Program-made: the position numbers and the translations under genes
Shown here: positions 9,457 to 39,814 of the stretch, piece after piece
Numbering within the stretch: position 1 is the stretch's first letter
Layout: the number at the start of each line of letters is the position of its first letter
Virus record (IMG/VR): IMGVR_UViG_3300042981_000082
Location: 1-57,320 of that record
From: a virus
Lineage: Duplodnaviria > Caudoviricetes
Direction: 5' to 3' (one strand)
Length of the DNA: 57,320 nucleotides
The notes under the pieces: model-generated
Told to the model about the DNA's origin: nothing
The model's input: only the letters and a program-made list of their open reading frames with translations
Databases searched by the model: none

Positions 9457-9458
9457 CG

Positions 9459-13869: not shown

Positions 13870-14223
13870 CTATTCTGAACCGGGCTCGTCACGGGCAATG
13901 ATAATGCTGCTGACGTAGGCGAGGGCTAGCCACCCCCAAAACAGCCACCAGATCACTGCAACCCATACGACGACCAACCCGAGGGCGAACCAGCCCAGGG
14001 CCACGAGCATGATCCAGGGTGTCGCGCACCAGAAGCAGTGCACGAGCTTGGACCATGAGCCGTCGTGCGTGATCTTATCCCACCAGATGCGCACGGCGAT
14101 GGAGGGCGGGAACACGTCGTAGGTCAGCACCCGGGAGAGCCGACCGACGCCGAACACCACCACGAGCACGGCAGCCACGATGAGCCAGGGACTGTCGAGG
14201 TAGTGCTGGATTGCTGCGGTCAT
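13870..14223 (-). CDS. DUF1360-like membrane protein
   Basis: RLSRVLTYD...LVHCFWCATPW pattern with TM segments. Confidence 0.7.
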   Translation of the reverse strand: MTAAIQHYLDSPWLIVAAVLVVVFGVGRLSRVLTYDVFPPSIAVRIWWDKITHDGSWSKLVHCFWCATPWIMLVALGWFALGLVVVWVAVIWWLFWGWLALAYVSSIIIARDEPGSE

Positions 14224-15641
14224 GCGATTCTCCTCCTGGGAATTGAGTTGACGGAGCGGGTGTGCTGCGTCCTGGGTATTGCTCGCCCGACCGGTGAGGC
14301 GATGGATGTCTCGCCCACCTCGCCTGCCAGTTCACCGATGGCCCACACGGTGGCGTCTACCCGGTTGGGGGAGTCGCCCTTGCCGGGGATCCAGGTGCAC
14401 ATCTCGTCCTCGATGTCGGCGCAGTTGCCGTAGTGCTTGACCTTCTGCTGCTCGTACAGGCCGACAACTGGCTCCGCGCGCAGCTTCTTGGACTTCTGCG
14501 CGGTCGCCACCTTGACCCGCGCGATGATCTTGCGTTCCTTCAGCGCGTTGTCGATGGTGGCCTTGACCATATCCCCGCCGTAGTTCTTCTCGGCCAGGAT
14601 GCAATCGGCCTCGTAGGACTCGTGCAGGTCGATGGCCTTGTTCGCCCAGTCGTTCGGGGTGTACTTGCCGGTTGCGTCGTGCAGCACGTAGTAGCACCCG
14701 CGATAGAGGCCGACGACCACGATGCCGGTCTCGTCGCTGCGCTTGTTCTTGGTGCCAGCCGGGTCGATTGCCACCACGATGCGCTCGCAGTCGTGCCAGT
14801 CGAAGCCGACCTCGGCCTTCTGGAACATCGTGTCATTCCACAGCGCGCCCTCGACATCGTTCAGCACCTGGCCCATCAGTTCCTGCTTGCCCTTGCGGGT
14901 GCCCTCGTACTTGTCGAGGATGTTCTGCCGGAACGTCGGGTCCAGGTTGTCCAGGTTGATGTAGGTGGGCACCGAGATGTGGATCGTCTTGCGATCCGCC
15001 TTGGTCGCCTTCACCCACTTGGATGGCACCGGCGTTGAGGTAGCCAGGATCTTCGCGCCGCCCGGCAGCCCCGGCAGACGCAGGCCGAAGAGCAGGTTGT
15101 CCCAGACCTCCTCGATCAGATCGAAGTGCGCCGGTTCGTCCGCCCAGGCCGCGCCGTGCTGGGGGCCGCGCAGGGTGTCCGGCTCCTCGGCGCTGTAGCC
15201 GAACGCCTTGGCACCGTTGCCGAAGGTGAATTCCTTCTTGGATGGCTGCCAGTCATAGTCAACCCCGGCGCGCTCGCACACCGCGATCAGACCAGACTCG
15301 CCCTCGACCATGGTGCCTCGCACGTCCGGGCCACGACGACCGATCAGCGCGATGCGCGGCACGTACTTGGTGATGGTGCGTACCCACTCGCTGCCGGTGC
15401 GGGTCTTGCCAGATCCGCGCCCAGACAGGATCAGCCAGGTGAGCCAGTCGATCTCGCGCGGGGGCCACTGGTCGCCGCGTGCGTGGGGATACTCGAATCC
15501 CTTGTGCGGCTTGCCATCGCAGATGCGACCGCGCGTGCAATACCAAGCCTTGCGCTCGGGGTTGGCACGGGCACGGGCAACCTCCAGCGCGCGCTTCTTA
15601 TCAGCGGCTGACCAGTTCGCGACATCAGCGACGCTCGTCAC
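14220..15641 (-). CDS. terL: Terminase large subunit
   Basis: Walker A GRGSGKT, LRGPQ...WADE Walker B, TSTP, nuclease VVAIDPAG...DETGIVV, EKNYGG, SPNRVDA. Confidence 0.95.
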   Translation of the reverse strand: MTSVADVANWSAADKKRALEVARARANPERKAWYCTRGRICDGKPHKGFEYPHARGDQWPPREIDWLTWLILSGRGSGKTRTGSEWVRTITKYVPRIALIGRRGPDVRGTMVEGESGLIAVCERAGVDYDWQPSKKEFTFGNGAKAFGYSAEEPDTLRGPQHGAAWADEPAHFDLIEEVWDNLLFGLRLPGLPGGAKILATSTPVPSKWVKATKADRKTIHISVPTYINLDNLDPTFRQNILDKYEGTRKGKQELMGQVLNDVEGALWNDTMFQKAEVGFDWHDCERIVVAIDPAGTKNKRSDETGIVVVGLYRGCYYVLHDATGKYTPNDWANKAIDLHESYEADCILAEKNYGGDMVKATIDNALKERKIIARVKVATAQKSKKLRAEPVVGLYEQQKVKHYGNCADIEDEMCTWIPGKGDSPNRVDATVWAIGELAGEVGETSIASPVGRAIPRTQHTRSVNSIPRRRIA

Positions 15642-15966
15642 GGTAGTCCTCCATCGAGATGATCTTCCACGGGCCGAAGTCGCCCAGTCCCGACTCCAAC
15701 TGGCGCTCCTGGCTGTTGGTCCCGAACCGGCACATCGGCGGTTCGTCCGCCATGACGGTGAACCAGTCCAGCCCGAGGTCGTAGGTCGCCACGGCCATCA
15801 GCGCGCGGCGCGTGTAGCTGGTCAGCGACATATCGCGCGCGCGGCACGCGGCCACGATGTTCGAATGCATGGACGTGGGGTAGTTCAGACCGATGGATCG
15901 CCGGGGAGGGCGCGTGTCCCGCTCGGCACTGACCTCATCGAGGATTCTCTGCTGCCAATCGAGCAT
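15625..15966 (-). CDS. Hypothetical protein, possible ribbon-helix-helix
   Basis: 113 aa in operon; AACRARDMSLTSYTRRAL resembles RHH helix 2. Confidence 0.55.
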   Translation of the reverse strand: MLDWQQRILDEVSAERDTRPPRRSIGLNYPTSMHSNIVAACRARDMSLTSYTRRALMAVATYDLGLDWFTVMADEPPMCRFGTNSQERQLESGLGDFGPWKIISMEDYRDERR

Positions 15967-15969
15967 TGC

Positions 15970-16578
15970 TTACGGCTCCTCGTCTGCCGGTCCCCAGGTG
16001 ACGCCATCCGGCGCCTGCTCCAGGGTGAAGATGTCGGCCTCCTCGACCTCGCCGCCCATCTCCTGGACGAATTTGTCCACCATCGCGTTGAATTCGTCCA
16101 CCGATGGGTTGGAGACCTCCATCTTGACCGGCGCATCCAGGCCCCAGAGCTTGGCCTTGCGGTCGATGATCGATACCGCCTGGCGAACGTAGGCCAGGTG
16201 CTCGGAATCGTTCTTATCCAGGGCGCGAGCGGCCACGGACTTCATCAGACCGTCCAGCTGGGCTGATGCGATGGCGCGCATCATCTTGTAGTCCACGTCC
16301 GAGTCGCCGGAGTCCGCGATGGCGCGCTCCACGGCGAGGCGAGCCGCCGCTGGCGAGGAGTATTCCTGCAATTGGGCGATCTCGGCGTATGTTGCACCGG
16401 CCAACTTGAGCTTGACCGCCGCCAGGGCCGATCGATCGCTGCGCTTCTTGACCTGGGCGGAGTCTTTGTCATCGCCGAGGTCGTTGACCACGTTCGGCTG
16501 GCCGTCATCGCGCACAGACTCCGTGGTGATCTTCTTTCCCTCGCGTCCGAAGGTGATCGTGTTCGCCATTATCGCCAT
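15970..16578 (-). CDS. Putative terminase small subunit (HTH)
   Basis: AVKLKLAGATYAEIA...AARLAVERA...IIDRKAKLWGLDAP pattern; upstream of terL. Confidence 0.7.
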   Translation of the reverse strand: MAIMANTITFGREGKKITTESVRDDGQPNVVNDLGDDKDSAQVKKRSDRSALAAVKLKLAGATYAEIAQLQEYSSPAAARLAVERAIADSGDSDVDYKMMRAIASAQLDGLMKSVAARALDKNDSEHLAYVRQAVSIIDRKAKLWGLDAPVKMEVSNPSVDEFNAMVDKFVQEMGGEVEEADIFTLEQAPDGVTWGPADEEP

Positions 16579-17219
16579 GCTCCGATCTCGAATCCGTCAA
16601 GCTCCATCTGGCCCACCCGTTTCAGGCCCAGTGCCTGGCGAATCCGGTTGTAGTCGGTCGAGGTGAATTCCCCGGTGCCGCCACGAGGCTCGATGGTGAT
16701 GGCTGTGCACGCATCGCCGTCCTCGGATCGCTCTGGATACACGTCATAGAGTTCATCCTTGGCGTGCGTGGCCTCCCCGGCTGGCTCCGCCTCGAAGTCG
16801 AGCCGCTCGTCGAGGGAATCCAGCAGGGTTTGTAGTTCGGCGGCGTCGAAGCCGGTTCCCAGCAGTCCCTCGTCGGACTCGCTGATGGCGTCCAGCAGCT
16901 GGGCGAGCCGTGTCGGGTCGTCAATTCCCAGCCGGGTGATCTTGTTGTCGGCCACCATGATGCGCTTGGCCTCGATGTCGTCCACATCCAGGAAGATCAC
17001 CGGGATGGATTCTTCACCAGCGGCCTTCATCACCTCCCAGCGGTGGTTCCCGGCCAGGATGTAGCCGGTCGAGGCCTGCACCAGCACCGGAGCGTAGAAG
17101 CCGGAGATCTCGATGGACTCCGTGAGGGCCTGGATGTCGGATTCGTTGGCGTTGTCGGGGTGTCGCTCGATCTCATCGATGGGGGAGGAGACGACTTGGA
17201 GATTTTCATGCACTCGCAT
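16569..17219 (-). CDS. ParB-like nuclease domain protein
   Basis: HPDNAN...SIEISGFYAPVLV...ILAGNHRW...ADNK (ParB N-terminal domain). Confidence 0.85.
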   Translation of the reverse strand: MRVHENLQVVSSPIDEIERHPDNANESDIQALTESIEISGFYAPVLVQASTGYILAGNHRWEVMKAAGEESIPVIFLDVDDIEAKRIMVADNKITRLGIDDPTRLAQLLDAISESDEGLLGTGFDAAELQTLLDSLDERLDFEAEPAGEATHAKDELYDVYPERSEDGDACTAITIEPRGGTGEFTSTDYNRIRQALGLKRVGQMELDGFEIGAWR

Positions 17220-17409
17220 CGGGTGAGCCTTTCGATTTTTGCGTTCCGAGCCGGTGTCCATCGGCTTTGACGAGGGAGCGGATGTAGGCCGAGCGGTCTG
17301 CGAAGCCGCGCAGCGCCCGTTGACGGTCCAGGCTTGCCTGTTCCGCCTTGGAGAACTTGGTTGTCACCGGCACGGTGCGCGCAACCGGTCCATCGGGTGG
17401 TCGTCCCAT
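17206..17409 (-). CDS. Ribbon-helix-helix DNA-binding protein
   Basis: MGRPP...VTTKFSKAEQASLD...RSAYIRSLV; TACGAT -10-like box 7 nt upstream (possibly leaderless). Confidence 0.65.
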   Translation of the reverse strand: MGRPPDGPVARTVPVTTKFSKAEQASLDRQRALRGFADRSAYIRSLVKADGHRLGTQKSKGSPDASA

Positions 17410-17442
17410 GGTCCGTATCGTAGTACGCAATCGGCAGGCATA

Positions 17443-17485
17443 GAAAAACCCCTGATCAGCAGGCATTTTCTGCAGATCAGGGGTT
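17443..17485 (-). terminator. Rho-independent terminator
   Basis: aacccctgatc/gatcaggggtt stem followed by a T tract on the minus strand. Confidence 0.75.
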
Positions 17486-17493
17486 CGTCGTCG

Positions 17494-17727
17494 TTACCTG
17501 AACGTGACCCGGTAGCGTCGATGGCCTCCGGTGGAGGCCACGAGGAGCCACCACCACCAGCCCACGGTCAGCCAGTAGAACATCGCCAGGCTGAATGCCA
17601 CCGGCCACCACAGCAGCACCGTCACCAGGCCCAATATCCAGTTGCTGGGCAGCCTAAACATCGCGCGCATACGCCACCTCACCCCCAAGCCCCGCGTATC
17701 CGGCGAGGTCGATCCAGTGATCGGCAT
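17494..17727 (-). CDS. Small Trp-rich membrane protein
   Basis: 77 aa ORF with hydrophobic WILGLVTVLLWWPVAFSLAMFYWL. Confidence 0.5.
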   Translation of the reverse strand: MPITGSTSPDTRGLGVRWRMRAMFRLPSNWILGLVTVLLWWPVAFSLAMFYWLTVGWWWWLLVASTGGHRRYRVTFR

Positions 17728-17986
17728 TCGTCGGCGAGTATGTGATCCGGGCGATCTTGAGCGCGGCCAGCATCAGTGGGACCTGCCACGGTTCGATCCT
17801 GAAGTCGATGATCGTGGACCATAGCTCGGCGGTCTTGCCGAAGGATTCGTGCGCCCCGCCATATTCGCTTTGACGTTGGCCGGAGATGATGGCTCCAGCC
17901 ATCTGGATGATCTGGTCCCGGTCCATCACTCGGACCATCTTGATGTCACCCTCTTGTGGGTCACCCTCTGTTGTTGTCTTAGCCAT
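17654..17986 (-). CDS. DUF6378-like protein
   Basis: IISGQRQSEYG...SF..TAELWS...VPLMLAALKIAR...DHWIDLAGYA. Confidence 0.8.
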   Translation of the reverse strand: MAKTTTEGDPQEGDIKMVRVMDRDQIIQMAGAIISGQRQSEYGGAHESFGKTAELWSTIIDFRIEPWQVPLMLAALKIARITYSPTNADHWIDLAGYAGLGGEVAYARDV

Positions 17987-18476
17987 TGTCGTTCTCTCCG
18001 TTTTCATAGTCTTCTTCTTCGGTTCCGATGATGTTCATCTCGCGCATCACCTTCAAGCGGAGGGGCAGTTCGCCCTTCCACAGGTAGAGCGGGTTGAGCC
18101 GGACCCTGCCGCGCCCGATCTTCACGACCACGCCAGAATCGACGATCCGTTTCACCGCTCGGGACGTGGCAACCGCCGCGTTGGGTCCCTCGGCCACCCC
18201 GATCTCCGCCAGCGTGTAGCGCACGATGCCCGTGTTGAACTCCGCGACATCGCACATCCGCAACAGGATCTTCCAGTCGTTGCCGTTCAGCCCCTGGAGA
18301 TCCTCTAGTCCTCTAGACCACATGAACATATATCCCCTTTGCCCACCCTTCCTGCCGTTTCGCCTGGGTTCCTCCCACTCGTGGGTCTGTATCTCGCCGG
18401 TTTCCCGGATGACGACCTGCTTGGTCTTGTGCACCATGACCGTCCGCCGAGGCTCCTGCATAGGCTCTCCATCCAT
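17979..18476 (-). CDS. RepL-like winged-HTH protein
   Basis: LNGNDWKILL...TLAEIG...TSRAVKRI...GVVVKIGRGRVRLNPLYLWKG resembles the RepL replication/maintenance family. Confidence 0.6.
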   Translation of the reverse strand: MDGEPMQEPRRTVMVHKTKQVVIRETGEIQTHEWEEPRRNGRKGGQRGYMFMWSRGLEDLQGLNGNDWKILLRMCDVAEFNTGIVRYTLAEIGVAEGPNAAVATSRAVKRIVDSGVVVKIGRGRVRLNPLYLWKGELPLRLKVMREMNIIGTEEEDYENGENDNG

Positions 18477-18479
18477 GCA

Positions 18480-18860
18480 CCCAATATGGGCCAGTTGTTA
18501 TCGGTTATTGCTATAAGTTTACGCTCATATTGATAGTATCTCCATTCGCAGTTTTTGTACGCTGACCGGGTGTTTTACCCCCATTTTTGAAATTCTCCTA
18601 TATCTATCAGAGGTATCTAAACGGCTATTTTCAGACCCGATTTACGGGGTTTCGTAGTCCCGGATTATTCCGTACTACGGAATGGTTGCGGGTGGTATCC
18701 ACGTGGTAGATCGGGCAGCGTATACAAGCCCCAGCCCCGTACCCGAATCGCTCGGGTGGGGGGCACAAGTCAAGCCCCCCTTTTTGGGGGTGTCCAGGTG
18801 GCTGGACGATCGTCCCGATGGGTGTACGTTGGTATCAATCGCACCACCCAACCGAAGGGA
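18480..18860. promoter_or_regulatory. Non-coding AT-rich divergence region between the two transcription arms
   Basis: Visibly A/T-rich at 18495-18680, no credible ORF, genes diverge on either side; G/C-run inverted repeats at 18730-18792. Confidence 0.65.
18802..18838 (+). promoter_or_regulatory. Putative early promoter
   Basis: CTGGAC-N17-TACGTT followed by GGTATCAA, which is also found at 20835. Confidence 0.5.
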
Positions 18861-18868
18861 TAGGCACC

Positions 18869-19165
18869 ATGGACATCACACCGGCGTACACTACCGTAGA
18901 AGGCGTGCACGAAGGGGGTCATTTCGGCCCCCGAATGTGCTTCATTCCCGCTTGCGAATGCGGAAATAACGACTTCGATTTGGACTATGCCGGATGCGCT
19001 AGCGATGGCACGTTCGACACCGACGCGATGGACTACTTCGCATGCCGCCTTTGTGGCCGTGTGATGGATGTCACGGACGGGTCCGTCGTGTTCCAATACG
19101 ACGTGGATGCCGCCGATGTTCGCGATGCGTTCAACGTCTACGGGCTTGAAATGGCGGGGATGTAA
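18869..19165 (+). CDS. Hypothetical Cys-containing protein
   Basis: CEC...CRLC, RBS upstream. Confidence 0.6.
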   Translation: MDITPAYTTVEGVHEGGHFGPRMCFIPACECGNNDFDLDYAGCASDGTFDTDAMDYFACRLCGRVMDVTDGSVVFQYDVDAADVRDAFNVYGLEMAGM

Positions 19166-19359
19166 TGGCCGCCATCAAGGGCACGATGCGTGCCGTACGT
19201 AGCGCACGCTTGGTACGCGGCGTTAGCGCCGTTGGACGTGTGGGCATCTCACTTGTGGTCACGTGCGTTGTTGTTGCCGGTGCGGTTTGCGTGGTGCCAT
19301 CGCTAGGTAGCTCATTGCTGGGCATGTTCGCATCGATGGCGCGGATGTTCGGACTCTAG
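19165..19359 (+). CDS. Small membrane protein
   Basis: TAATG-coupled to the previous gene; hydrophobic segment. Confidence 0.45.
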   Translation: MAAIKGTMRAVRSARLVRGVSAVGRVGISLVVTCVVVAGAVCVVPSLGSSLLGMFASMARMFGL

Positions 19360-19455
19360 ACATCCCCCCGCTTGGGGGTATGGCGCGTACCACACGGTGC
19401 GTGCATCATGGATACAACGAGGACATGGTGTCCTCACGAAAGGAAGGTCAGGATC

Positions 19456-20244
19456 ATGGCCACTGCAACACTCAACAAGCCCGTCATCTCCGGCGACAAG
19501 GCACCGGCGCCCGTTTCGAAGAAGGCGTCCGCGAAGGCGGATGTCGAGGCCAAGCGCTCGGCGGAGGTCGCTGCGGAGGCGGCTGCCGCTGTGTCGGTTC
19601 AGTTCGCTGGACGCATGGCGAAGCTCTTCGACGACACCAAGAGCACGTTCGACCGCGCTCGCCTCAGCCACCAGGCCGTCGCCAAGGGTGCCTCGCTGAC
19701 CATCGTGGCCGATGAACTCTCGATGATCCGCGCTCGTGCCGCGTACCCCGAGGCCACCGAGATCGAGTTGGACTACTACGCGTCCAACGTCACGGGCAAG
19801 GGGGGCACGCAGATCAGCAAGGCGTCCCTGCACGCCTACGCCAGCGCCTGGGAGTCGATCTCCAAGGCGACCCTCGAGCACGACGTGGAGGTGGTGGGGC
19901 TGGCCTTCCGCCTGTACAGCAAGGGGGGCACGGCCTCCGGACGCAAGGAGTCCGAGGTGCGCTGCGCCGCGATGGAGGACAAGGCCGCTGCGCGTGCCGA
20001 GTACATCCGCGCTGCCCACCTGAACCTGCGCGGCGTCAACCCGTACGAGATCACCCCGAAGGTCGCGCCGAAGTCCGAGGACACCAGCGAGGACGAGGAG
20101 ACGGAGGAGGAGCCGCAGTCCAAGGGCTTCAGCCTGGCGCAGGTGCTCTCGACCATCGAGCAGGCCTCCCGGCAGACCTGGAACACCAAGGAGCGCGATC
20201 GTATCCTGGAGGCGTTCAGCGCATTCGTGGATGCCACTGCGTAG
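19456..20244 (+). CDS. Hypothetical protein (highly biased codon usage)
   Basis: 262 aa, RBS AAAGGAAGG, strong GC3 bias. Confidence 0.8.
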   Translation: MATATLNKPVISGDKAPAPVSKKASAKADVEAKRSAEVAAEAAAAVSVQFAGRMAKLFDDTKSTFDRARLSHQAVAKGASLTIVADELSMIRARAAYPEATEIELDYYASNVTGKGGTQISKASLHAYASAWESISKATLEHDVEVVGLAFRLYSKGGTASGRKESEVRCAAMEDKAAARAEYIRAAHLNLRGVNPYEITPKVAPKSEDTSEDEETEEEPQSKGFSLAQVLSTIEQASRQTWNTKERDRILEAFSAFVDATA

Positions 20245-27488: not shown

Positions 27489-28169
27489 GTGAGTATACCC
27501 ACACCGTCAGATAGCTCGCAATCTAGAGACACACCATCTCGTGGTGACAGTGACGCCTCGCCACTAGATGTTGTAGTCCGTGCGCTATCCAAGCTCGACG
27601 ATGCGCAACGCAGACTGGTTAATGAGCAGGCCAATGTCACTGCGGCGCGCGATGTTGTCGAGGCTGAATTACTAAAGCTCGGCAAATACGTCGAGTATCA
27701 CGACATGCCTACGCCGATTGATCTGGTTCGAGAGATCTATTGGCATCAACCAACTGTCAGAGTCAAGGCGATATCCGATTCGTTCCCGACAACCTGGTCG
27801 TACCAGAGCCTTGTTTCCAGGGATATGGGAGAAGGCTCTCGACAGCGAAAGTGTGTCGTATGCGATGCGTTATTTGAGTATCCAGTTTCTGTACGATCCT
27901 GGAGCGGAAGCAAGCCGATCACCTGTTCGCGGGAGTGCAGTGTTGCCTACAACCTGGATGCCGAAGAGAAGGACAGGATGCGACGTGAACGAGAGGCTTG
28001 GGAATTCCGCTCTGCGATCGCCAATGGCAACTATGTGATTAGCAAACAGACAACATCCATTGGTGGAAAAGAAATTGTCTATGAGTATGCAATCATCCTG
28101 ACAACAACTGGTGCTGGATATTCCTATTCGCCCGACGACTTCGAGAAGGAGTTTGGGCATCTGGCATGA
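27489..28169 (+). CDS. Hypothetical protein with CxxC..CxxxC motif, atypically low GC
   Basis: CVVC...TCSREC; many A/T-ending codons. Confidence 0.65.
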   Translation: MSIPTPSDSSQSRDTPSRGDSDASPLDVVVRALSKLDDAQRRLVNEQANVTAARDVVEAELLKLGKYVEYHDMPTPIDLVREIYWHQPTVRVKAISDSFPTTWSYQSLVSRDMGEGSRQRKCVVCDALFEYPVSVRSWSGSKPITCSRECSVAYNLDAEEKDRMRREREAWEFRSAIANGNYVISKQTTSIGGKEIVYEYAIILTTTGAGYSYSPDDFEKEFGHLA

Positions 28170-28897
28170 GCATCGAGGCAATGAGATGGGTCTGGGAGAA
28201 CACGACCTATACGGGTAACAAGCTAAATACTCTCGTTGCGATAGCCAGTTTCCTGGACGCGAGCGGACATGGCTACCCAGGCATCGACAAGATTCGTGAG
28301 CGCTGTCACTTATCGAAGAACACCGTGCTCAAATTCATCGCTGAATACGAGGACGAGGGCGTGCTCAGCAGGGATCGTCGCAACGTGGACAAGGGCTATC
28401 GGACGAGCAATGAATACCACTTGACGAGCCTAAGTCCAAAGTCCAACAAGACTGGACCTAGGCCTAAGTCCAGTTTTGAGCAGCCTAAGTCCAGTTTTGA
28501 GCAGCCTAAGTCCAACATGTTGGACCTACATAGGAAAGTAAGTACAGAAAGTCAGAAAGAAAGTCAGTTAACTACGCGCGAGGGATTCGATTCTGTCTGG
28601 GATTCATGGCCTCGGAAAGAGAACAAGCGAGCAGCGAAGAAGGCCTTCGAGATCGCGATGGAGAAGTCGCCCGACGAGCGAGCGGTGATCAATCGCATCC
28701 TCGTATTCGGCCAGATCTTCAGCCGTGGCAATCCGAAGTACGTTCCGGGACTGGCCAGGTGGCTGGACGACGAGCGCTGGAACGACGAGCTACCCAGGGA
28801 GAGAGCGCCCCTGAATGACAGCAACATGGACGCCATGGTCCGGCTCAGTGGCTGGATCAACGCAACACCAGGAACGATTGGAGGGATCACATCATGA
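28166..28897 (+). CDS. Phage replication initiator (N-terminal HTH, lambda O-like organisation)
   Basis: MSIEAMRWVW...LVAIA...GYPGIDKI..RC.LS..TV...; C-terminal FDSVWDSWPRKENKRAAKKAF...WLDDERWNDE. Confidence 0.82.
   Translation: MSIEAMRWVWENTTYTGNKLNTLVAIASFLDASGHGYPGIDKIRERCHLSKNTVLKFIAEYEDEGVLSRDRRNVDKGYRTSNEYHLTSLSPKSNKTGPRPKSSFEQPKSSFEQPKSNMLDLHRKVSTESQKESQLTTREGFDSVWDSWPRKENKRAAKKAFEIAMEKSPDERAVINRILVFGQIFSRGNPKYVPGLARWLDDERWNDELPRERAPLNDSNMDAMVRLSGWINATPGTIGGITS
28428..28567. repeat. Iteron-like repeats, putative origin of replication inside the initiator gene
   Basis: GCCTAAGTCCA at 28428, 28462, 28483, 28504 (last three with 21-bp period); inverted copies TGGACCTA at 28453 and 28521; A-rich AGAAAGTCAG repeats follow. 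Confidence 0.78.
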
Positions 28898-29247
28898 CCA
28901 AGAAAGAAATCGCTGCACTCCTCGGCCTCATCGCCGGGGCTGATGGCCGACAGCCAGATGCACTGATGGCCGAGGCATGGTACGCCGTCCTCGATGGGAT
29001 GGACATCACGTTCCCGCAGGCACGCGAGAAGGTCCTCGCGTTCTACCGTGCCGGACACACCCGGCGCATCCAGATCGGCGACATCACCGCCAAGAAGAAG
29101 ATCACCGAGCAGGACGGCTACAACATCAAGCGCCGGGACCTGTTCGGCGAGCGCCGTCGTTGGCAGGCGGCTCATCCCAACGGCACCGCTGCCGAGTTCG
29201 CCAAGTGGTACGAGGCCACCGACAACCAGATCGAGCCGAAGCCATGA
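28894..29247 (+). CDS. Putative helicase loader/inhibitor
   Basis: EIAALLGLIAGADGR...AEAWYAVL...; lies between initiator and helicase. Confidence 0.6.
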   Translation: MTKKEIAALLGLIAGADGRQPDALMAEAWYAVLDGMDITFPQAREKVLAFYRAGHTRRIQIGDITAKKKITEQDGYNIKRRDLFGERRRWQAAHPNGTAAEFAKWYEATDNQIEPKP

Positions 29248-30452
29248 CCGGGACAGTTGCCGAGCAGCACCTGATCGGTGCGGTGATCCTCGAGCCTCGG
29301 TACTACACAAGTCTGGAGCAGCTGGTCACCGGCGACGACTTCAGCGATGCGCGGATGGGCCAGGTCTACGATCGCATCGGCCAGATGCTGCGCGCCGGAG
29401 AGGTGGTCGATCAGATCACCGTCATTGAGGCCATCGAGTCCCTGGACCTGGTGAACTTCGACTCGACCCAGGTGTTCTCCTGGGCGGATGCATCGGTGGC
29501 TCCATCGGCAGCGGTGGACTACGCCAAGGCCGTACGCCGGGACAAGCTGCGTCGTGCCATGGGCGACGTGGTTCAGGTCATGACCGAGCGCGCAGCATCC
29601 GGCGATAGCCCGTTCGACATCGCCAGCGATTCGATGCGTGCGCTGTCCAGCGTGCTGGAAGGGGCGACCTCGGGGCGCTTGCAACCCAAGCGGTTGCGGG
29701 AGATCCTGGATGAGCCAGACAGCTTCGACTGGATCATCCCCGGCTTGCTGGAACGCCAAGACCGACTGATCCTGACCGGAGGTGAGGGCGTGGGAAAGAC
29801 GACATTTGCACGCCAGATAGTCCTGCTTGCTGCCGCTGGCCTGCACCCGCTACGCTTCGAGCGGATGCATCCCGTCCGCTGCCTGGTTGTCGATGCCGAG
29901 AACACCGAGAGGCAGTGGCGCAGGTACGTTCGCTGGCTTGCGCACGATGCTGCTGAGCAGGGCGTCATTGATCCTCGCGATCACGTGTTCATCCAGGCAG
30001 GATCACGAATCGATATCACCAGTGGCAGCGACCTGGCCGAGATCCATCGGCTCATCGATATCCACAAGCCCGACCTGCTGTACATCGGGCCGCTCTACAA
30101 GCTCGTTCCGAAAGCGATCTATTCGGACGACGACGCCGCACCCCTGATCGTGGCATTGGATTCGCTGCGGGACCGGGGCCTGGCGCTGGTCATGGAAGCA
30201 CACGCTGGCAAGGCCAAAGATCACCACGGCGACAGGTCACTGGAGCCGAGGGGGTCGAGCCAGCTACTGGGCTGGCCGGAGTTCGGATTGGGACTCCGGC
30301 AAGACGAGGACGACCCCAAGCGGGTTGACGTTGTGCGCTGGCGTGGCGACCGTGAGGCCGACCGCGAATGGCCCACGGCGATGTACCACGGCAAGACCTT
30401 CCCCTGGATCGATTCGTCGATCCGAAATCAGAACGGAGAACCTGATGAGTGA
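29244..30452 (+). CDS. DnaB-like replicative helicase (DnaB N-terminal domain plus RecA-type ATPase)
   Basis: AEQHLIGAVIL...GDDF; Walker A GGEGVGKT; VVDAEN; HAGK; PRGSS. Confidence 0.88.
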   Translation: MTGTVAEQHLIGAVILEPRYYTSLEQLVTGDDFSDARMGQVYDRIGQMLRAGEVVDQITVIEAIESLDLVNFDSTQVFSWADASVAPSAAVDYAKAVRRDKLRRAMGDVVQVMTERAASGDSPFDIASDSMRALSSVLEGATSGRLQPKRLREILDEPDSFDWIIPGLLERQDRLILTGGEGVGKTTFARQIVLLAAAGLHPLRFERMHPVRCLVVDAENTERQWRRYVRWLAHDAAEQGVIDPRDHVFIQAGSRIDITSGSDLAEIHRLIDIHKPDLLYIGPLYKLVPKAIYSDDDAAPLIVALDSLRDRGLALVMEAHAGKAKDHHGDRSLEPRGSSQLLGWPEFGLGLRQDEDDPKRVDVVRWRGDREADREWPTAMYHGKTFPWIDSSIRNQNGEPDE

Positions 30453-32945: not shown

Positions 32946-33359
32946 ATGAAGAAGAAGGATCGGATCGAACAGCTGGAGAGCCTCACCCGTGGACTGCGAG
33001 CACGGGTGGTCAACTACAACAGCCTCATCGATAGCAACAAGTACCTCATCGAGGCGACCACCGCAGAGTTGCGCAAGGCCGAGCGTGAACTGGCCGAGCT
33101 ACATCGCCCGAAGGAACCAAAGCCGGGATCTGTCATCACGTTCTCGCGGACCTATGTCGGGTCTAGGACGACCTACGAGTATGCGGCGCTTCGAGTCGGC
33201 GACACCTGGTACATCACCGGCGCCACGTGCCCTCGGAACGGCTTCACCTGGGGAGCGTTGCTGCAATTCATCAGCGGCAAGAACTTCGGCGCGAACCTGC
33301 TCAGACACAGTGACATCGTGGTGGTCAAGACCGGCAAGGTCATCGAGGTTCCACGGTGA
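32946..33359 (+). CDS. Hypothetical protein
   Basis: Coiled coil then PGSVITF...YEYAALRVGDTWYITG. Confidence 0.7.
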   Translation: MKKKDRIEQLESLTRGLRARVVNYNSLIDSNKYLIEATTAELRKAERELAELHRPKEPKPGSVITFSRTYVGSRTTYEYAALRVGDTWYITGATCPRNGFTWGALLQFISGKNFGANLLRHSDIVVVKTGKVIEVPR

Positions 33360-34540: not shown

Positions 34541-34591
34541 ACTAGTTACGTGCCCGTTGATCACGGGCGAGACATTGAGACTGGAGATGAA

Positions 34592-35071
34592 ATGGCACAG
34601 GGCGAAACGCAACTTACGGTGATCGGGAACCTCACCGCCGATGCCGAACTGCGATACACGCAGGCGGGATTGGCCGTGGCGAACTTCACGATCGCATCAA
34701 CGCCCCGCGAATTCGACAAGGCCAGCAACGAGTGGAAAGACGGACAGGCATTGTTCCTCCGGTGCTCCGCTTGGCGCGACCTCGCCGAGAACGTGACCGG
34801 CTCGCTGACGAAGGGATCGCGAGTGATCGCGGTCGGACGCCTCAAGCAGCGCAGCTACGACACCAAGGAAGGCGAACACCGAACCGTCATCGAGATGGAT
34901 GTCGATGAGATCGGGCCATCCTTGCGGTTTGCAACGGTGAGCGTTCAACGCTCGCAGACGAGCCGGACACAGCAGGACAACAGACAGCGCACGCAGACCG
35001 GCACCGATGGTGCCACGCCAGCGGATGATGTCTGGAACGCACCTGGCTACGACGACGAGACTCCGTTCTAG
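34592..35071 (+). CDS. ssb: Single-stranded DNA-binding protein
   Basis: [33 protein letters not shown]...[21 protein letters not shown]; acidic tail DDETPF. Confidence 0.96.
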
Positions 35072-35089
35072 GTCGCCGCAGTCAGCACC

Positions 35090-35122
35090 GGGCCAGGTCG
35101 TTTTTGGGGTACGACCTGGCCC
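35090..35122 (+). promoter_or_regulatory. 12-bp stem-loop at the 5' boundary of the RAMP-like/array module
   Basis: gggccaggtcgt/acgacctggccc. Confidence 0.6.
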
Positions 35123-35149
35123 ACCACCCCGAAGAAAAGGAAAAGGATC

Positions 35150-35803
35150 ATGGCAGAAACACAGGCAGTTGCACCACGCATCGAGATCGATCGCATCCCG
35201 ATTGAGACAATCCGCGTCCCGTTGATCGGACTCAGCCCGTTGATCGTGCACAACTTCAGCGAGAAGTCCAAGCGCCAGATGCTGGAGGCGCAGCAGGGCA
35301 AGAAGAAGGTCAAGGCCGTACGCGATCCAGAAGCTGAATACCTCGCGGCGTTCTATCGCATCCGCGAGATCGGCGACGAGCAGGATCGCTACGGATTCCC
35401 GGTCACCGCCTTCAAGGCAGCGACCACCGGAGCCGCCAGGTTCTATGACAAGTCCATCAGCATGACCGGCCTGCGTCAGTTCCTGTTCTTCCGTGGCATC
35501 CTCACCGATGCGGACCCACAGCAGCTTGTCGAGATCAACGGCGAGCCTCGGATGCGCGAGGACATCGTGCGGCTCGGCGGGGTGTCCCGCTCGGCTGACC
35601 TGCGCTACCGTCCCGAGTTCATCAACTGGACCGCGACGCTGGATGTGACATACGTGGCATCCTCGATCAGCCAGAATTCGGTGCTGTCGCTGATCGACGC
35701 CGGAGGCCTGGGCATCGGCGTCGGCGAATGGCGACCGGAGAAGCGCGGCGAGTTCGGCACCTACGCCATCGACCAGTCCAGGGCGGTCGAGGTTCTGCCA
35801 TGA
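35150..35803 (+). CDS. RAMP/Cas7-like protein, putative effector of the downstream pentamer array
   Basis: IRVPLIGLSPLIVH (RAMP first strand), YGFPVTAFKAA (cf. iP.sslKGa), RYRPEF..W, and C-terminal Gly-rich loop GGLGIGVGEWRPEKRGEFGTY; the ORF is certain, the fold is inferred. Confidence 0.7.
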   Translation: MAETQAVAPRIEIDRIPIETIRVPLIGLSPLIVHNFSEKSKRQMLEAQQGKKKVKAVRDPEAEYLAAFYRIREIGDEQDRYGFPVTAFKAATTGAARFYDKSISMTGLRQFLFFRGILTDADPQQLVEINGEPRMREDIVRLGGVSRSADLRYRPEFINWTATLDVTYVASSISQNSVLSLIDAGGLGIGVGEWRPEKRGEFGTYAIDQSRAVEVLP

Positions 35804-36216
35804 GCGACCTGCGCGAACACCTCCTGAGCATCCGACGCCAGCACGGAGCGCTCACCCCGCGTGCCGTGCTGGTGGAGGCCGAGCCGGAGGACTCACCGCT
35901 GCATCACCATTTCGAGTGGGACCAGGAGGCGGCGGCGGATGCCTACCGGCTTGAGCAGGCGCGCGAGTTGATCCGTTCCGTGATGGTCGTCTACACCGAC
36001 AGCAAGGCACGCAACCGGAGTGTGCGCGGTTTCGTGAACGTCCAGCAGGCTGGATCTACCGGTCGCGAATACAAGCCCATCGAGGAGGTGGCGCAGGACC
36101 CGTTCGCGCGTCAGCTTGTCCTGCGTGAAGCCGAACGCGACTGGAAGGCACTGCGCTCCAAGTACGGGGACCTCCAGGAATTCATGGATCTCGTGCGCAA
36201 CGATGTCGCAGTCTAG
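35800..36216 (+). CDS. Conserved hypothetical protein coupled to the RAMP-like gene (array-associated accessory)
   Basis: ATGA overlap; G.LTP.AVL..A....SPLH..FEWD...AA..YRL.QAR.LIRSV motif; its stop codon supplies the first G of the array. Confidence 0.75.
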   Translation: MSDLREHLLSIRRQHGALTPRAVLVEAEPEDSPLHHHFEWDQEAAADAYRLEQARELIRSVMVVYTDSKARNRSVRGFVNVQQAGSTGREYKPIEEVAQDPFARQLVLREAERDWKALRSKYGDLQEFMDLVRNDVAV

Positions 36217-36764
36217 GCAGGCCAGGCTAGTCGAGGCGGGTCGAGTCCAGGCAAGGCGCGGCGAGGCAGGCGAGTCGAGGCATGACGTGGTAGGGCTTGG
36301 CGGGGCTGGGCTAGGCAGAGCGAGGCAGGGCAGGCAGGGTACGGCCTGGTGCGGCCTGGCTGGGCTTGGCGCGTCGAGGCAGGCAAGGCATGGCTCGTCA
36401 GAGCATGGCTCGGCTTGGCACGGCAGGCTGGGCATGGCACGGCAAGTCTGGGTCCGGCAGGGTTCGGTTGGGCGCGGTGTGGCGTGGCAAGGCAGGCACG
36501 GTGCGGCGTGGGGAGGCACGGCGGGGCGCGGCTTGGCAGGCACGGCACGGCTCGGCTAGACATGGCAGGTCTCGGCCCGGCAAGGCAGGCACGGAATGGC
36601 GTGGTTGGGCTTGGCTCGGCGGGGTGTGGCACGGCAGGCGAGGTATGGCTCGGCCTGGCATGGCAGGGCAGGGTTGGGCTGGGTGCGGCAAGGCAGGCTG
36701 GGCATGGAATGGCCAGGCAGGGCAAGGCTGGGCACGGCCGGGCTTGGCGCGGCAGGCAAGGCTG
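36216..36764 (+). repeat. GGY-NN pentamer array: 101 pentamers in 10 units separated by 11 GGCA tetramers; putative guide-RNA precursor
   Basis: Manual parse accounts for every base (101x5 + 11x4 = 549); 86 of 101 pentamers start GGC/GGT; last two bases are variable; GGCA at 36216, 36265, 36329, 36378, 36422, 36491, 36535, 36584, 36633, 36692, 36751. Confidence 0.93.
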
Positions 36765-36785
36765 GAAGTAACGAAAGGAAACGCA

Positions 36786-37277
36786 GTGGAAATCGCGTTT
36801 GAGGTCGATGGCGTGCCGGGACCGCAAGGGTCGAAGCGGTACGTCGGCAAGCGCAAGAAAGGTCCCCGAGCCGGGCAGGCAATCATGATCGAGTCGTCGA
36901 AAAAAGTTCGACCCTGGCGCGAGGCCGTTCGCCTCGCCGCCATCCAGGCGATGGACGAGGACCCAACCTGGGAACGCGGATTCGATGGACCGGTTGCGCT
37001 GAGCATTTTGTTCTACTTGCCGCGTCCAGAATCTGCACCGAAACGATCACGAATCCGAGCTAAGAGAGTGCCCGACGTGTCCAAACTTTTGCGTGCCACC
37101 GAGGACGCGATCACCGACTCGGGCCTATGGCGGGATGACGCTCGCGTTGTCATCGCCCACGTGGAAAAAACATACGCGATCGGATCGCACCTGAGCGCCA
37201 TCTATCAACTCGACGACCGCGAGATAGCGGGAGCCGAGATCACCATCGAAGCACTGGGAGAAACGGAGGACACATGA
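36786..37277 (+). CDS. rusA: RusA-like Holliday junction resolvase
   Basis: VDGVPGPQGSK...ESSKKVRPWR...PDVSKLLRATEDAIT..GLWRDDARVV; GTG start with AAAGGA RBS. Confidence 0.9.
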   Translation: MEIAFEVDGVPGPQGSKRYVGKRKKGPRAGQAIMIESSKKVRPWREAVRLAAIQAMDEDPTWERGFDGPVALSILFYLPRPESAPKRSRIRAKRVPDVSKLLRATEDAITDSGLWRDDARVVIAHVEKTYAIGSHLSAIYQLDDREIAGAEITIEALGETEDT

Positions 37278-37735
37278 GATTCACCCGAGCACTCGAAGAG
37301 CAGATCGTCGAGGCGATCACGACCAACCCGGAAGATCACATCGTTCTTCCGTCCGAGATGTACCGTCCCGATGGGTTGATCCTGATCCATCGCGACAACC
37401 TGAGCTACGCGATCCATCGCTACCTCTACGGCAAGCTGGTCCGTCCGCTGAAACGCGGCGAGTATCTGCTGCCGCGATGCAAGGTGAGGGGATGCATCAA
37501 TCCCCTGGAGCCGCATCGTAAGCTTTCCAATTCGCCTCACCCCGGCCAGGCGGCAAACAGGACCTGTCCCAACGGCCACGAGTACACCAGGGAGAACACG
37601 CTTCCAGCTTCTGAACGCAACCGCTGCCGACAATGCAAGCAGGAGCGGTTGGCACGTCGTCGAGTGAAAGACGCCGAACGGCGAGCGGCATTGAAACAGC
37701 AACTAGATCGGAGACACGCATCATGGCAAGACTGA
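37274..37735 (+). CDS. Degenerate HNH-endonuclease-like zinc-binding protein
   Basis: HRYLY..LV...C....CINP, then TCPNGHEYTRENT...RCRQC. Confidence 0.65.
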   Translation: MRFTRALEEQIVEAITTNPEDHIVLPSEMYRPDGLILIHRDNLSYAIHRYLYGKLVRPLKRGEYLLPRCKVRGCINPLEPHRKLSNSPHPGQAANRTCPNGHEYTRENTLPASERNRCRQCKQERLARRRVKDAERRAALKQQLDRRHASWQD

Positions 37736-38382
37736 CCCAGGCACAAATGGTTCGACTGCTCAACCCGGTACGCGAGGATCGCATCGAGGTCAAGCAGGGC
37801 CTCAGCTATGTTCCCCAGCAGGAGGTCCGCGCCGAGTTGAACCGCACCTTCGGGATGGGCAACTGGGACTCGCAGGTCATCCACATGGAGCTTGCCTACG
37901 AGAACACGCAGCCCGGCACCGGCAAGAACGCGGACAAGACCTACTGGATATGCGGCTACGCAGCCGCCGTCCGGCTCCGCGTGCGCAACTACGAGGGCGA
38001 ACCCATCGCGGAGTTCATCGAGTACCACTTCGAGGAGAACGCACCTCAGCCCAACCGTGGCGAGGCTCGCGTCCTGGCGATGACATCCGCCGCCAGCTAC
38101 GCGCTGCGTCGTGCTGCAATCGGCCTGGGCGATGCGTTCGGACTGCACCTCTACGACAGGGGCAACCTCAATCCCATCGTGCGCGGGACGCTGGCCCTCA
38201 CCGACAAGGATTCGCCCACCTACAAGGAACCACAGAAGCCCGCTGGAGCGCCTAGGAATCCCGCCCTGGTACAGGAAGGCCAGGCACCCCAGAACGCGCC
38301 GGAGAGCCCCGTTCCTGCCCCAGCCAGTGGCATCAGCGAATTGGCCGAGGGATTCAATCACCCGGAAGCGAGGCAGTCATGA
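37723..38382 (+). CDS. Rad52/Rad22-family ssDNA-annealing recombinase
   Basis: LSYVPQQEVRAELNRTFG..NW...A.SYALRRAAIGLGDAFGLHLY. Confidence 0.85.
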   Translation: MARLTQAQMVRLLNPVREDRIEVKQGLSYVPQQEVRAELNRTFGMGNWDSQVIHMELAYENTQPGTGKNADKTYWICGYAAAVRLRVRNYEGEPIAEFIEYHFEENAPQPNRGEARVLAMTSAASYALRRAAIGLGDAFGLHLYDRGNLNPIVRGTLALTDKDSPTYKEPQKPAGAPRNPALVQEGQAPQNAPESPVPAPASGISELAEGFNHPEARQS

Positions 38383-38861
38383 GGACACAAGACGAGATCC
38401 GCGCTCGATTGGACACCGTGCGCGCATCCCATCTGGACTTCCTGGGCAAGCGCCAGGAGGTGCTCGTCCAGACGCTGGACTATGAGCACATCAAGGATCT
38501 GCTCACCGATCCCGACCCGGAGAAGTGGGGCGATCCACAGACGCCGTGGGAAACCTCAGCGGCTGCTGGCGAATACCTGGCATTCGCCGTGGAGAAGGCG
38601 ATCGATCACCGGGGCCTCTCGGCCAACCGATCTATCGACGCCTTCACCGAGTACCTGTGGCTGCTCACCGACGACGACACCTGCCGGAAGTTCGATGAGG
38701 TCCGCTACGCCCCGTATGGGATGCCGAAGCTGAAGTTCGCGGCGGAGGCGCTGGGCTTCACGGAGGCCTTCGACGCCATGGGCAAGGAGTACGGAGTCGA
38801 GATGGCGCGGATGGCGGCTGGGCTGTCGTGCAGCGATAACTGCGGGGAGTGTTTCTCGTGA
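38379..38861 (+). CDS. Hypothetical protein
   Basis: 160 aa; FAVEKAIDHRGLSANRS...WLL...YGMPKL. Confidence 0.75.
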   Translation: MRTQDEIRARLDTVRASHLDFLGKRQEVLVQTLDYEHIKDLLTDPDPEKWGDPQTPWETSAAAGEYLAFAVEKAIDHRGLSANRSIDAFTEYLWLLTDDDTCRKFDEVRYAPYGMPKLKFAAEALGFTEAFDAMGKEYGVEMARMAAGLSCSDNCGECFS

Positions 38862-39814
38862 CCGGCGTCGAGGTGATTCAGCGAGGCCAGCGCCTGGCCG
38901 AGCAGATGGTGGCCGATATGGTGCACCACCAGAACAACCGGCCTCGTTCGCTCCAGAGCCAGAAGCGCATCCTGGGTATGAGCGAGATGGGCGGATGCCG
39001 CGAGTACATCCGGGCCACCATCGCCGGGGACAAGAAGATGGACCCGACGCTGTGGAAGCAGGAGGCCGAGTTCGGCACGGCGCTGGGCGACTACATCGAG
39101 AACGCCATCGGCGAGGCGCACGGTGATGACGTGATGCTCCAGCACAGGCTGACGCTGGAGTTGCAGGTGGGCGGTCATCCCATTCGGGTATCCGGCTCCA
39201 CCGACATCATCTACATCACCGACGACGGAGACATCGTTGACCTCAAGTCGAAGAACGGGCTGGGCCTGACCAAGCGCGAGGGACCGACCTTCAAGAACAA
39301 GGCTCAGCTGGCTGGCTACATGGAGGCTGCCGTCCAGGAAGGCCTGGTGAATCCAGAGACAGTAGCTGGACACCTCATGTTCTTCGACCGGGGAGCAGCC
39401 GAGAAGGGCTTCCTGCCGTACTCGATGGACTACGCGCAGGCCAAGCTGATCCTGGAGGCGGTGTCCGAGCGCCTGGAGGATGTTGCCAGCGCGCTATCCA
39501 CAGCCAGGATGGCGACCCGCGATGAGCCGGAGTCCTGGTGCTGGGCGGTGCAGTGCCCGTTCTACAACAACTGCTGGGCTGGCTACATGCCGGATCAGAA
39601 GATCGAGAACCCCGAGGCGCTGGAAGCCATTCGCATCTACGTCGAGGCTCGCCGTGATCGCAATGACGACATCAGCGCGGTCGAGGCTGCCAAGCAGATG
39701 CTGGAGGGAATCGAGGGCGTCACGCCGGACGGTGTTGTCGTGCGCTGGACCGAGGTCATGCCGAAATCCGGCAACGCCTACATGAAGCTCGAAGTGAGGG
39801 AGCCGAAGCAATGA
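38858..39814 (+). CDS. Cas4-family / PD-(D/E)xK exonuclease
   Basis: SEMGGCR; GSTD...IVDLKS; QLAGY; C-terminal C....CPFY..C. Confidence 0.8.
   Translation: MTGVEVIQRGQRLAEQMVADMVHHQNNRPRSLQSQKRILGMSEMGGCREYIRATIAGDKKMDPTLWKQEAEFGTALGDYIENAIGEAHGDDVMLQHRLTLELQVGGHPIRVSGSTDIIYITDDGDIVDLKSKNGLGLTKREGPTFKNKAQLAGYMEAAVQEGLVNPETVAGHLMFFDRGAAEKGFLPYSMDYAQAKLILEAVSERLEDVASALSTARMATRDEPESWCWAVQCPFYNNCWAGYMPDQKIENPEALEAIRIYVEARRDRNDDISAVEAAKQMLEGIEGVTPDGVVVRWTEVMPKSGNAYMKLEVREPKQ

Follow-up and report, generated by a model that had tools for sequence, protein, structure and literature searches.

VIPR (Viral Interference Programmable Repeat) systems were described in three bioRxiv preprints of 2026, and a fourth recovers VIPR arrays by language model; what is cited from them here follows the parts of their text that were available. 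The central protein, Vipr, is an early-branching RAMP, and its guide RNAs (vrRNAs) consist of 9–16 YNNGG repeats with a hypervariable NN dinucleotide (bioRxiv 10.64898/2026.04.26.720920). According to the same preprint, the system recognizes double-stranded DNA by reading two bases and skipping the next, and silences transcription free of any protospacer-adjacent motif (PAM) and without self-targeting, its natural targets being satellites, prophage switch regulators and rival VIPR loci. Seven VIPR types, six accessory (vap) gene families and 664 loci were reported there, and the array variants include "staggered arrays with overlapping vrRNAs"; of these, the ribozyme and single-guide forms were confirmed by small-RNA sequencing and the staggered form was not. 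Here we describe a locus in the IMG/VR virus record IMGVR_UViG_3300042981_000082 (the window, that is, the whole stretch of 57,320 bases that was analysed), in which a vipr gene, a partner gene and an array of GGYNN pentamers lie between ssb and rusA. With a probability of about 0.9, we read it as a VIPR system of the staggered, tail-less form in the early replication and recombination module of a siphovirus-like soil phage. The kind of system is already published and the locus adds no new principle; a preliminary description of this DNA, made from its letters and open reading frames (ORFs), had mentioned the name VIPR and doubted the novelty, and the preprints bore out both.

The closest characterized member is the type II VIPR of Escherichia phage SUSP1 (vipr ALH47069, vap1 ALH47068, four vrRNAs, PDB 36pp), in which vipr and vap1 are both required to hold down a satellite (bioRxiv 10.64898/2026.10.15.759431). 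In the same work, the SUSP1 vrRNA4 guide is described as reading only codon positions 1 and 2 of the catalytic core of the satellite recombinase; escape therefore needs an amino-acid change in that core. The present locus resembles SUSP1 in its homologous Vipr, in a two-gene operon of vipr followed by a gene of about 140 codons, in GGY/NN guides on the same strand, in being phage-borne without cas genes, and in a guide wobble-aligned to a conserved coding motif. It differs in an Actinobacteria-like host range (63% G+C), and neither marker of type II (the SUSP1/P. fulva clade), vap1 and the 3′ tail, was found here.

Vipr, the staggered array and the partner protein

Sequence homology and a predicted fold identify the 217-aa protein as Vipr, a Cas7-like RAMP. 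It matched no Pfam family (best E 0.16), and its PHROG family, phrog_4652, is of unknown function. In a phmmer search against all Protein Data Bank (PDB) chain sequences, the sole match below E 0.01 was the "SUSP1 Vipr protein" of entry 36pp (E 2.9e-4). This single-sequence alignment to SUSP1 Vipr covers the C-terminal third only; a profile of 66 sequences matched chain residues 4–188 of 202 (E 1.7e-13), and hhalign against the SUSP1 vipr gene product gave a probability of 98%. At E ≤ 1e-3, the family comprised 2535 proteins among 90% clusters (2885 candidates) and 3315 representatives among 50% clusters, 120 of which reach 1e-30.

In the cryo-electron microscopy (cryo-EM) structure of SUSP1 Vipr, GGY is contacted by H17, R138, D177, W178 and R179 (bioRxiv 10.64898/2026.04.26.720927, available text). 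Alignment placed H17 at H34 of the present protein, R138 at R154, D177 at E193, W178 at W194 and R179 at R195; across the 66 aligned sequences, R154 and R195 do not vary. Both Vipr proteins have the G-loop motif GVG[DE]WRP, found here as GVGEWRP at residues 190–196, and the thumb motif YRP. In the AlphaFold2 (AF2) model, which is confident (pLDDT 93.9, pTM 0.88), the thumb is a long beta-hairpin of residues 133–157 bearing R152 and R154.

Foldseek comparison of this model with the PDB gave 82 matches at E ≤ 1e-3, with TM-scores of 0.41–0.56. The matches listed were all type III Csm/Cmr, type VII or Cas7-11 effectors, Csm or Cas7-11 complexes and subcomplexes, or single Cmr6; the PDB set used ends at 2026-04-08, and no VIPR entry was among the matches. 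The predicted protein shares with Class 1 Cas7 (Csm3/Cmr4 of type III, type VII Cas7, Cas7-11) an RNA recognition motif (RRM) core, a glycine-rich loop and a thumb hairpin, and VIPR shares with it polymerization along the guide at a fixed period with bases flipped out in each period. These Cas7 proteins lead the structural matches (Foldseek E about 1e-6, probability 1.00), yet identity is 6–18%. The periods also differ: 5 nt with 3 bases sequestered in VIPR, 6 nt with 1 base flipped in Class 1 CRISPR. VIPR has no CRISPR repeat handle, Cas6, Cas5, large subunit or adaptation genes, and its guide information is interleaved rather than held in a contiguous spacer.

The components that define Class 1 CRISPR–Cas (repeat–spacer array, Cas5, Cas6, large subunit, adaptation genes) were not found in the window. 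TRF detected no CRISPR-like array there (no repeat array of 25–80 nt), and the sole Cas-associated family among the 69 ORFs scanned against PHROG was phrog_1706 (E 1.1e-14), a secondary match on the exonuclease ORF 38849–39811. Together with the recombinase at 37633–38379, this exonuclease has the look of a recombination pair as commonly found in phages, and it does not seem to belong to the VIPR cassette. By the TRF and PHROG scans, the locus is a minimal VIPR locus outside CRISPR–Cas, and its earlier labelling as "non-CRISPR" was fair.

The array begins within the partner gene, its first G being the last base of the TAG stop, and ends about 20 nt before the rusA GTG (36786), with AAAGGA in between. 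Self-identity was 0.59 at lag 5 and 0.55 at lag 10, versus 0.19–0.21 at lags 2–3. Of 98 steps from one GGY to the next, 72 were of 5 nt, 13 of 4 nt, 10 of 10 nt (one degenerate pentamer in between) and one of 6 nt, with two others. GGY was present in 81 of 101 in-phase pentamers (G 0.90, G 0.93 and C/T 0.90 at positions 1–3), and GTC is its recurrent degenerate form (5/101). The entropy of NN positions 4 and 5 was 1.95 and 2.00 bits, and all 16 dinucleotides occur. With a threshold of at least 6 in-phase GGY in 10, this array was the detector's sole call on the plus strand of the 57-kb window, and a 50-nt chance block its one call on the minus strand; after shuffling of the array, the threshold was reached anywhere in 12 of 1000 trials. 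TRF picked up the array only as fragments.

Thirteen one-base register slips (4-nt steps) divide the array into nine units of 5–13 full pentamers, each with a junction tetramer; short or degenerate units are also present (36216–36268 and 36568–36587). The junction reads GGCA/GG, the stroke marking the slip, at 12 of the 13. Over 41 loci with related vipr genes, GGCA stands at 140 of 206 slips, versus the opening of 340 of 1261 ordinary pentamers (27%), and L005 and L006 are clean examples with units of 10–13 pentamers, each closing in GGCA. This junction preference and its spread are counts of the present analysis, not met in the available text of the VIPR preprints, and GGCA/GG provides a quantitative signature of the guide boundary. 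The slips agree with the legend of the staggered vrRNA arrays (fig. S18 of 10.64898/2026.04.26.720920, matched by legend): the "1 nt overlapping positions" given there correspond to the 4-nt GGCA/GG step here, successive units overlapping by one nucleotide at all 13 steps. Counted with the junction, the units have 9, 9, 10, 10, 12, 12, 13 and 14 repeats, the shorter or degenerate ones 4–7, so that most lie within the 9–16 repeats of published guides or one repeat short. The units abut without a spacer. Rfam gave only a chance miRNA row on 34900–36900 (E 0.47) and no ribozyme match; therefore, there is no hammerhead ribozyme between units.

Much of this had been anticipated. The preliminary description had listed a hairpin, a 217-aa gene, a translationally coupled 138-aa gene and a 549-nt array, and all of these, together with the end of the array just before rusA, were recovered at the stated coordinates; its strict 5-nt GGY periodicity with a freely varying dinucleotide also held. 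It had further divided the array into ten units, a number corrected by the slip count above. The RAMP/Cas7-like assignment of the first gene agreed with the homology to 36pp, and the structure prediction with Foldseek that had been suggested as a check returned a Cas7-type RAMP fold, with CRISPR effector entries in all the matches listed.

The partner gene occupies the position of a VIPR accessory (vap) gene. Its ATG at 35800 overlaps the vipr TGA as ATGA, an arrangement of translational coupling, and its TAG stop lies at 36214–36216. A longer frame of 162 aa from 35728 is available; the 35800 start is favoured because homologues align from residues 1–6 of the 138-aa form. The protein belongs to phrog_15946, of unknown function, and matched neither Pfam (best E 0.027, under the cut-off) nor PDB sequences (best E 0.52). 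Its AF2 model is confident (pLDDT 94.1) and consists of three helices, a four-stranded sheet and three further helices. Against the PDB, this structure gave a best Foldseek E of 0.28, and among 48,161 chains compared by VIA-align the best Z was 3.2, with none at Z ≥ 5. Three matches at E ≤ 1e-3 were obtained in BFVD, all unnamed or uncharacterized viral proteins, and the ESM Atlas returned only "hypothetical protein" clusters, mostly viral. Failure to match known folds does not make the partner fold new. In the profile of 43 partner sequences, the invariant or near-invariant residues are P33-L34-H35, F38, W40, D42, A45, R50, Q53, A54 and Y91.

Recurrence in related loci and cultured phages

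The 41 loci encode Vipr relatives of 33–78% identity, one genome per species, and span Actinomycetes, Chloroflexota, Bacteroidota, Clostridia, Alphaproteobacteria and others. A GGY array adjoins vipr on the same strand in 37 of them and on the opposite strand in none (0/41). The preliminary description had suggested testing in homologues whether GGY arrays recur downstream; the survey found them recurring beside the gene. No array was detected at L027, L032, L033 and L036; of these, L033 is a short contig that stops within about 500 nt downstream of the gene, and L027 and L032 each extend for over 1.5 kb to either side of it. SUSP1 served as a positive control: the detector recovered its published vrRNAs, one upstream and three downstream.

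A partner gene was found downstream of vipr by tblastn in 37 of the 41 loci and was absent in L032, L035, L037 and L041. We read vipr, partner and array as an obligate module of three parts. The place of the array varies: it follows the partner in the window and in L001, lies between vipr and partner in L004, L005, L008 and Gordonia phage Pipp, and stands upstream of vipr in Mycobacterium phage Saal.

Homologues of vipr occur in 34 phage records, including 27 phages of Mycobacterium smegmatis and 5 of Gordonia terrae. This places staggered, tail-less VIPR in a large clade (the 3315 cluster representatives at E ≤ 1e-3) that includes model phages which are cultured and non-pathogenic, and the architecture that small-RNA sequencing left unconfirmed in the preprint can be tested in those of M. 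smegmatis and G. terrae. Among the papers listed by a literature search, none paired vrRNA or Vipr with actinophages, a result that does not imply absence from print.

In phage Pipp (MN234179), the array lies at 3117–3352 of L257 (about 33099–33334 of the record), between vipr (gene 42) and the partner (gene 44), and is annotated as protein-coding gene 43, "hypothetical protein". This annotation is probably wrong, a VIPR array having been taken for a protein-coding gene in a cultured phage, and other actinophage records may contain the same error. In phage Saal (NC_023580), the array lies at 2078–2340 of L258, upstream of vipr (gene 51) and is overlapped by the 5′ end annotated for that gene; the neighbours of this locus are an immunity repressor, an antirepressor and an excisionase.

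Guide U6, proposed mechanism and alternative readings

Guides were compared with DNA in the published form, each GGY being replaced by one wildcard (the 1-nt-skip rule), and this skip rule was the only one compared. No self-target in the phage scored above order-permuted guides. Read antisense, with each NN and the skipped base taken as a codon, the 14 repeats of unit U6 give L-[FL]-T-T-A-[HQ]-[DE]-L-G-[HQ]-[FL]-V-[IM]-[HQ]. The decoded peptide contains what we take to be the HEXXH zinc-site motif of ImmA/IrrE (Pfam Peptidase_M78), a likeness that was then tested. The M78-motif reading fills U6 exactly, from the first repeat to the last.

Seed scans of U6 were run in the viral contig collection. 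An exact 8-repeat seed from the middle of U6 occurred in 46 viral contigs, 35 of which read TTAHELGH in frame. The 8-repeat seed at the 5′ end occurred in 52 contigs; 29 of them matched 23–26 of the 28 guide bases and the other 23 matched 16–21. The 29 best contigs read AHELGH[LF]VMH or SHELGHLVMH, and the reversed 5′-end seed gave 6 contigs with a best match of 20/28. Peptidase_M78 was found in all six matched genes scanned, with an XRE helix-turn-helix (HTH) domain in front in four.

The AHELGH guide core is present in 5 of 44 arrays or loci. Besides the window, the core TG-CC-AG-TC-TG (HELGH) recurs in L001, L002, L008 and L022 with differing flanks that are still M78-like. Among 868 distinct six-repeat NN words from the 44 sources, only two were common to different loci, and both come from the HELGH element. 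We also observed the pentamer run GTCTG, GGTCC, GGCAG/GGTAG, part of the AHELGH guide, at 36446–36460 of the window, at about 5216 in L001 and at about 4781 in L008.

By sequence, then, at least one guide appears to mirror, in wobble alignment, the catalytic HEXXH segment of genes for ImmA/IrrE-type metallopeptidases. The U6 evidence leads to a target class and not to an identified target. It makes the HEXXH codons of ImmA/IrrE a concrete class of target, with a guide recurring in five arrays. Like SUSP1 vrRNA4, U6 would read codon positions 1 and 2 of an active-site segment, that of a satellite recombinase core there and the HEXXH zinc site of the ImmA/IrrE (M78) class here (10.64898/2026.10.15.759431, available text). 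U6 would add to the published view of VIPR guides as directed at codon positions unable to mutate freely. The words ImmA, IrrE and peptidase are absent from the main texts of 10.64898/2026.04.26.720920 and 10.64898/2026.10.15.759431, in which "protease" appears once, as the TEV protease of the purification protocol in the former. This phage is not a target of its relatives' guides: 2 of those 135 guides reached 80%, as did 2 of 135 permuted ones.

By analogy with SUSP1, the array would be transcribed along with the neighbouring genes of the early operon, and Vipr would coat the RNA with one protomer per pentamer. The G-loop, the thumb arginine and the beta-sheet histidine would grip GGY and leave the two variable bases exposed, and the filament would bind double-stranded DNA matching NN-x-NN-x..., with every third base skipped, blocking transcription. 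A one-base slip may break the register of the protein, so that one filament ends and the next starts. The partner may act with Vipr as vap1 does in SUSP1, either replacing the missing tail in some way or helping on DNA. Resident prophages, satellites or integrative elements that compete with the phage would probably be held down by silencing of their induction or derepression machinery, a host regulator of the ImmA/IrrE family being an alternative target. Were an ImmA/IrrE-type protease silenced, the resident element could not cleave its repressor and would not be induced, in parallel with SUSP1 holding its satellite in the chromosome.

Parts of this scheme had been proposed from the letters. 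That GGY is held and NN presented agrees with published VIPR, except that in the cryo-EM structure each GGY is gripped between two neighbouring protomers, not by one subunit as the preliminary description had it (10.64898/2026.04.26.720927, available text). Guide pairing through NN likewise matches, but with double-stranded DNA and a one-base skip rather than with every NN on a contiguous site. The expected output, silencing of competing phage or host sequences, is in line with the published function (10.64898/2026.04.26.720920, available text).

Several results weigh against the reading of the locus as a VIPR system working in this way. Transcription and processing of the array and its binding by Vipr are presumed from homology to SUSP1, and no sigma-70-like promoter was seen in 34900–36900. 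In SUSP1, the guides lie about 100 nt apart, with about 55–75 nt between the four detected blocks, each vrRNA capped by a conserved 3′ pseudoknot tail of about 40 nt, whereas the units here abut and have no such tail; the slip as the end of a filament is our proposal. The partner is not detectably vap1 (hhalign probability 0.1% for its profile against SUSP1 vap1); because of this lack of similarity, its role is proposed from its position. At one GGY contact, D177 of SUSP1 is replaced by glutamate, a conservative change. As for targets, U6 at three or fewer mismatches was found in none of 3 actinobacterial genomes, none of 201 from the genus of the Microbacterium relative and none of 401 from its class, and the exact 14- and 12-repeat patterns had no occurrence in metagenome contigs. 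The best U6 matches (24–26/28) lie in contigs of 31–58% G+C, which makes a host shared with this 63% G+C phage unlikely. Seeds of U3, U4, U10, U11 and U12 gave nothing above chance in viral contigs: they hit 18, 10, 4, 73 and 9 contigs, respectively, with extensions no better than chance, the best being 23/26 for U3 in a contig of 35% G+C.

Alternatives to this staggered VIPR reading differ in how much of it they keep. One retains the system and changes its aim: the natural targets would be host genes, with U6-like guides silencing chromosomal XRE-HTH/M78 regulators in a takeover of the host. XRE–M78 fusions are also chromosomal regulators in Actinobacteria, and such a fusion was seen in four of the six viral-contig genes tested. 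Prophage guides of L001 and L002 match 19 of 22 bases, over the HEXXH codons, of a gene for a 413-aa XRE-HTH and Peptidase_M78 fusion (L259 865–2103; G002, contig 74), which lies in the genome carrying L002, on a different contig. However, 19/22 is near chance in a G+C-rich 3-Mb genome (an estimated 0.01–0.4 expected per guide), any M78 gene has the core motif, and both the 29 best and the 35 TTAHELGH matches come from viral contigs, the sole collection scanned with the seeds. Published VIPR targets, as far as the available text lists them, are mobile elements and their regulators (satellites, prophage switch regulators, rival VIPR loci), and we regard host takeover as unlikely. Silencing of competing elements remains the preferred use, and a bolder form of it would have the GGCA/GG slip alone write the guide boundaries, stop and seed filaments and expose the junction to trimming, the clade-specific 138-aa partner taking over the part that the pseudoknot tail has in SUSP1, in capping or processing, and U6-type guides serving as generalists against HEXXH codons. 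We put this forward tentatively, as a doubtful extension. If true, the slip would be a third kind of array punctuation beside Cas6-cut repeat hairpins and self-cleaving ribozymes, and a recurrent generalist HEXXH guide would lock many unrelated prophages and satellites in place.

The remaining alternatives deny the array its guides. It might be one long scaffold RNA, a decoy or sponge, with the slips as functionless scars of replication slippage; the units are not separated by a tail, ribozyme or promoter (34900–36900), their lengths are irregular (2–13 full pentamers, several degenerate), and staggered arrays are not among the small-RNA-confirmed architectures (10.64898/2026.04.26.720920, available text). 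Yet the slips pick out one tetramer, GGCA, at 12 of 13 sites here and far above its share in ordinary pentamers across loci from many phyla, which disfavours random slippage, and both the exact fit of the M78 reading to U6 and the unit lengths, mostly within the published 9–16 repeats or one repeat short, argue for guides. A scaffold, decoy or sponge of this kind is improbable. Least credible of all, to the point that we give it hardly any weight, is a protein-coding array specifying a low-complexity Gly/Ala/Arg/Trp-rich protein. Long ORFs do run through the array, in several frames of either strand, such as 36349–36771 (plus) and 36213–36827 (minus), and the Pipp array is annotated as a coding sequence, gene 43; open frames are expected anyway, because GGYNN repeats seldom form stop codons. 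A period of 5 nt does not keep step with codons, each of the 13 one-base slips shifts the frame, GGY is conserved regardless of frame while the two remaining bases show maximal entropy, and the varying place of the array upstream of, between or downstream of the two genes in relatives suits an RNA element.

Genomic setting of the cassette

The window is the complete virus record. A PHROG scan of the 69 ORFs indicated a soil phage of siphovirus-like layout, with tape measure, minor tail, major head, portal and terminase genes on the minus strand and a replication and recombination module on the plus strand, in the order initiator, helicase, ssb, cassette, rusA, recombinase and exonuclease (Table 1). 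Neither an integrase nor an ImmA-like gene was recognized among these ORFs.

Table 1. Coordinates of the cassette, the array units and the flanking genes in the window.
Feature	Position	Strand	Evidence or remark
Replication initiator	28166–28894	+	
DnaB-like helicase	28977–30449	+	
ssb, 5′ flank of cassette	34550–35071	+	Pfam SSB, E 1.1e-27
Hairpin between ssb and cassette	35090–35122	+	Perfect 12-bp stem, 9-nt loop (centroid structure)
vipr, 217 aa, RAMP (Cas7-like)	35150–35803	+	36pp homology, AF2 fold, phrog_4652
Partner gene, 138 aa, position of VIPR accessory (vap) gene	35800–36216	+	Downstream of vipr, 37/41 related loci
Staggered vrRNA array, GGYNN pentamers, 549 nt	36216–36764	+	Lag identity, GGY steps, detector
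Degenerate 5′ part, short units	36216–36268	+	Slips at 36216, 36235, 36265
U3: 12 pentamers + GGCA	36269–36332	+	Three degenerate GGY (GTC, GAC, AGC); no target found
U4: 9 pentamers + GGCA	36333–36381	+	No target found
U5: 8 pentamers + GGCA	36382–36425	+	
U6: 13 pentamers + GGCA	36426–36494	+	Putative HEXXH-motif guide
U7: 8 pentamers + GGCA	36495–36538	+	
U8 (5 pentamers + GGCA) and U9 (irregular, one 6-nt step)	36539–36587	+	
U10: 9 pentamers + GGCA	36588–36636	+	Seed scan at chance level
U11: 11 pentamers + GGCA	36637–36695	+	Seed scan at chance level
U12: 11 pentamers + GGCA, to 36754, then 2-pentamer stub	36696–36764	+	Seed scan at chance level
rusA-like resolvase, 3′ flank	36786–37277	+	GTG start; Pfam RusA, E 4.3e-14; phrog_140
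Recombinase	37633–38379	+	
Exonuclease	38849–39811	+	Best match phrog_35747

The stub after U12 runs into the ribosome-binding site of rusA. The hairpin at the other end of the cassette may be a terminator or attenuator, or an RNA-processing site. Its 79-nt context is unexceptional in folding (z −1.42; 17 of 200 shuffles fold equally well), no U-tract follows the stem, and the terminator scan made no call at the hairpin. Over 34900–36900, that scan gave one terminator-like site, on the minus strand and at chance level.

Two further observations concern the rest of the window. A perfect 21-nt direct repeat of 2.5 copies lies at 28462–28514, inside the replication-initiator gene, and is iteron-like, as in a phage origin. 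The 878-aa ORF at 9462–12095 matches the PHROG categories portal protein, head maturation protease and head morphogenesis and has 84% nucleotide identity to Microbacterium phages RubyRalph, Fransoyer and SadLad; it is the only near match of window positions 1–20000 in the phage collection.

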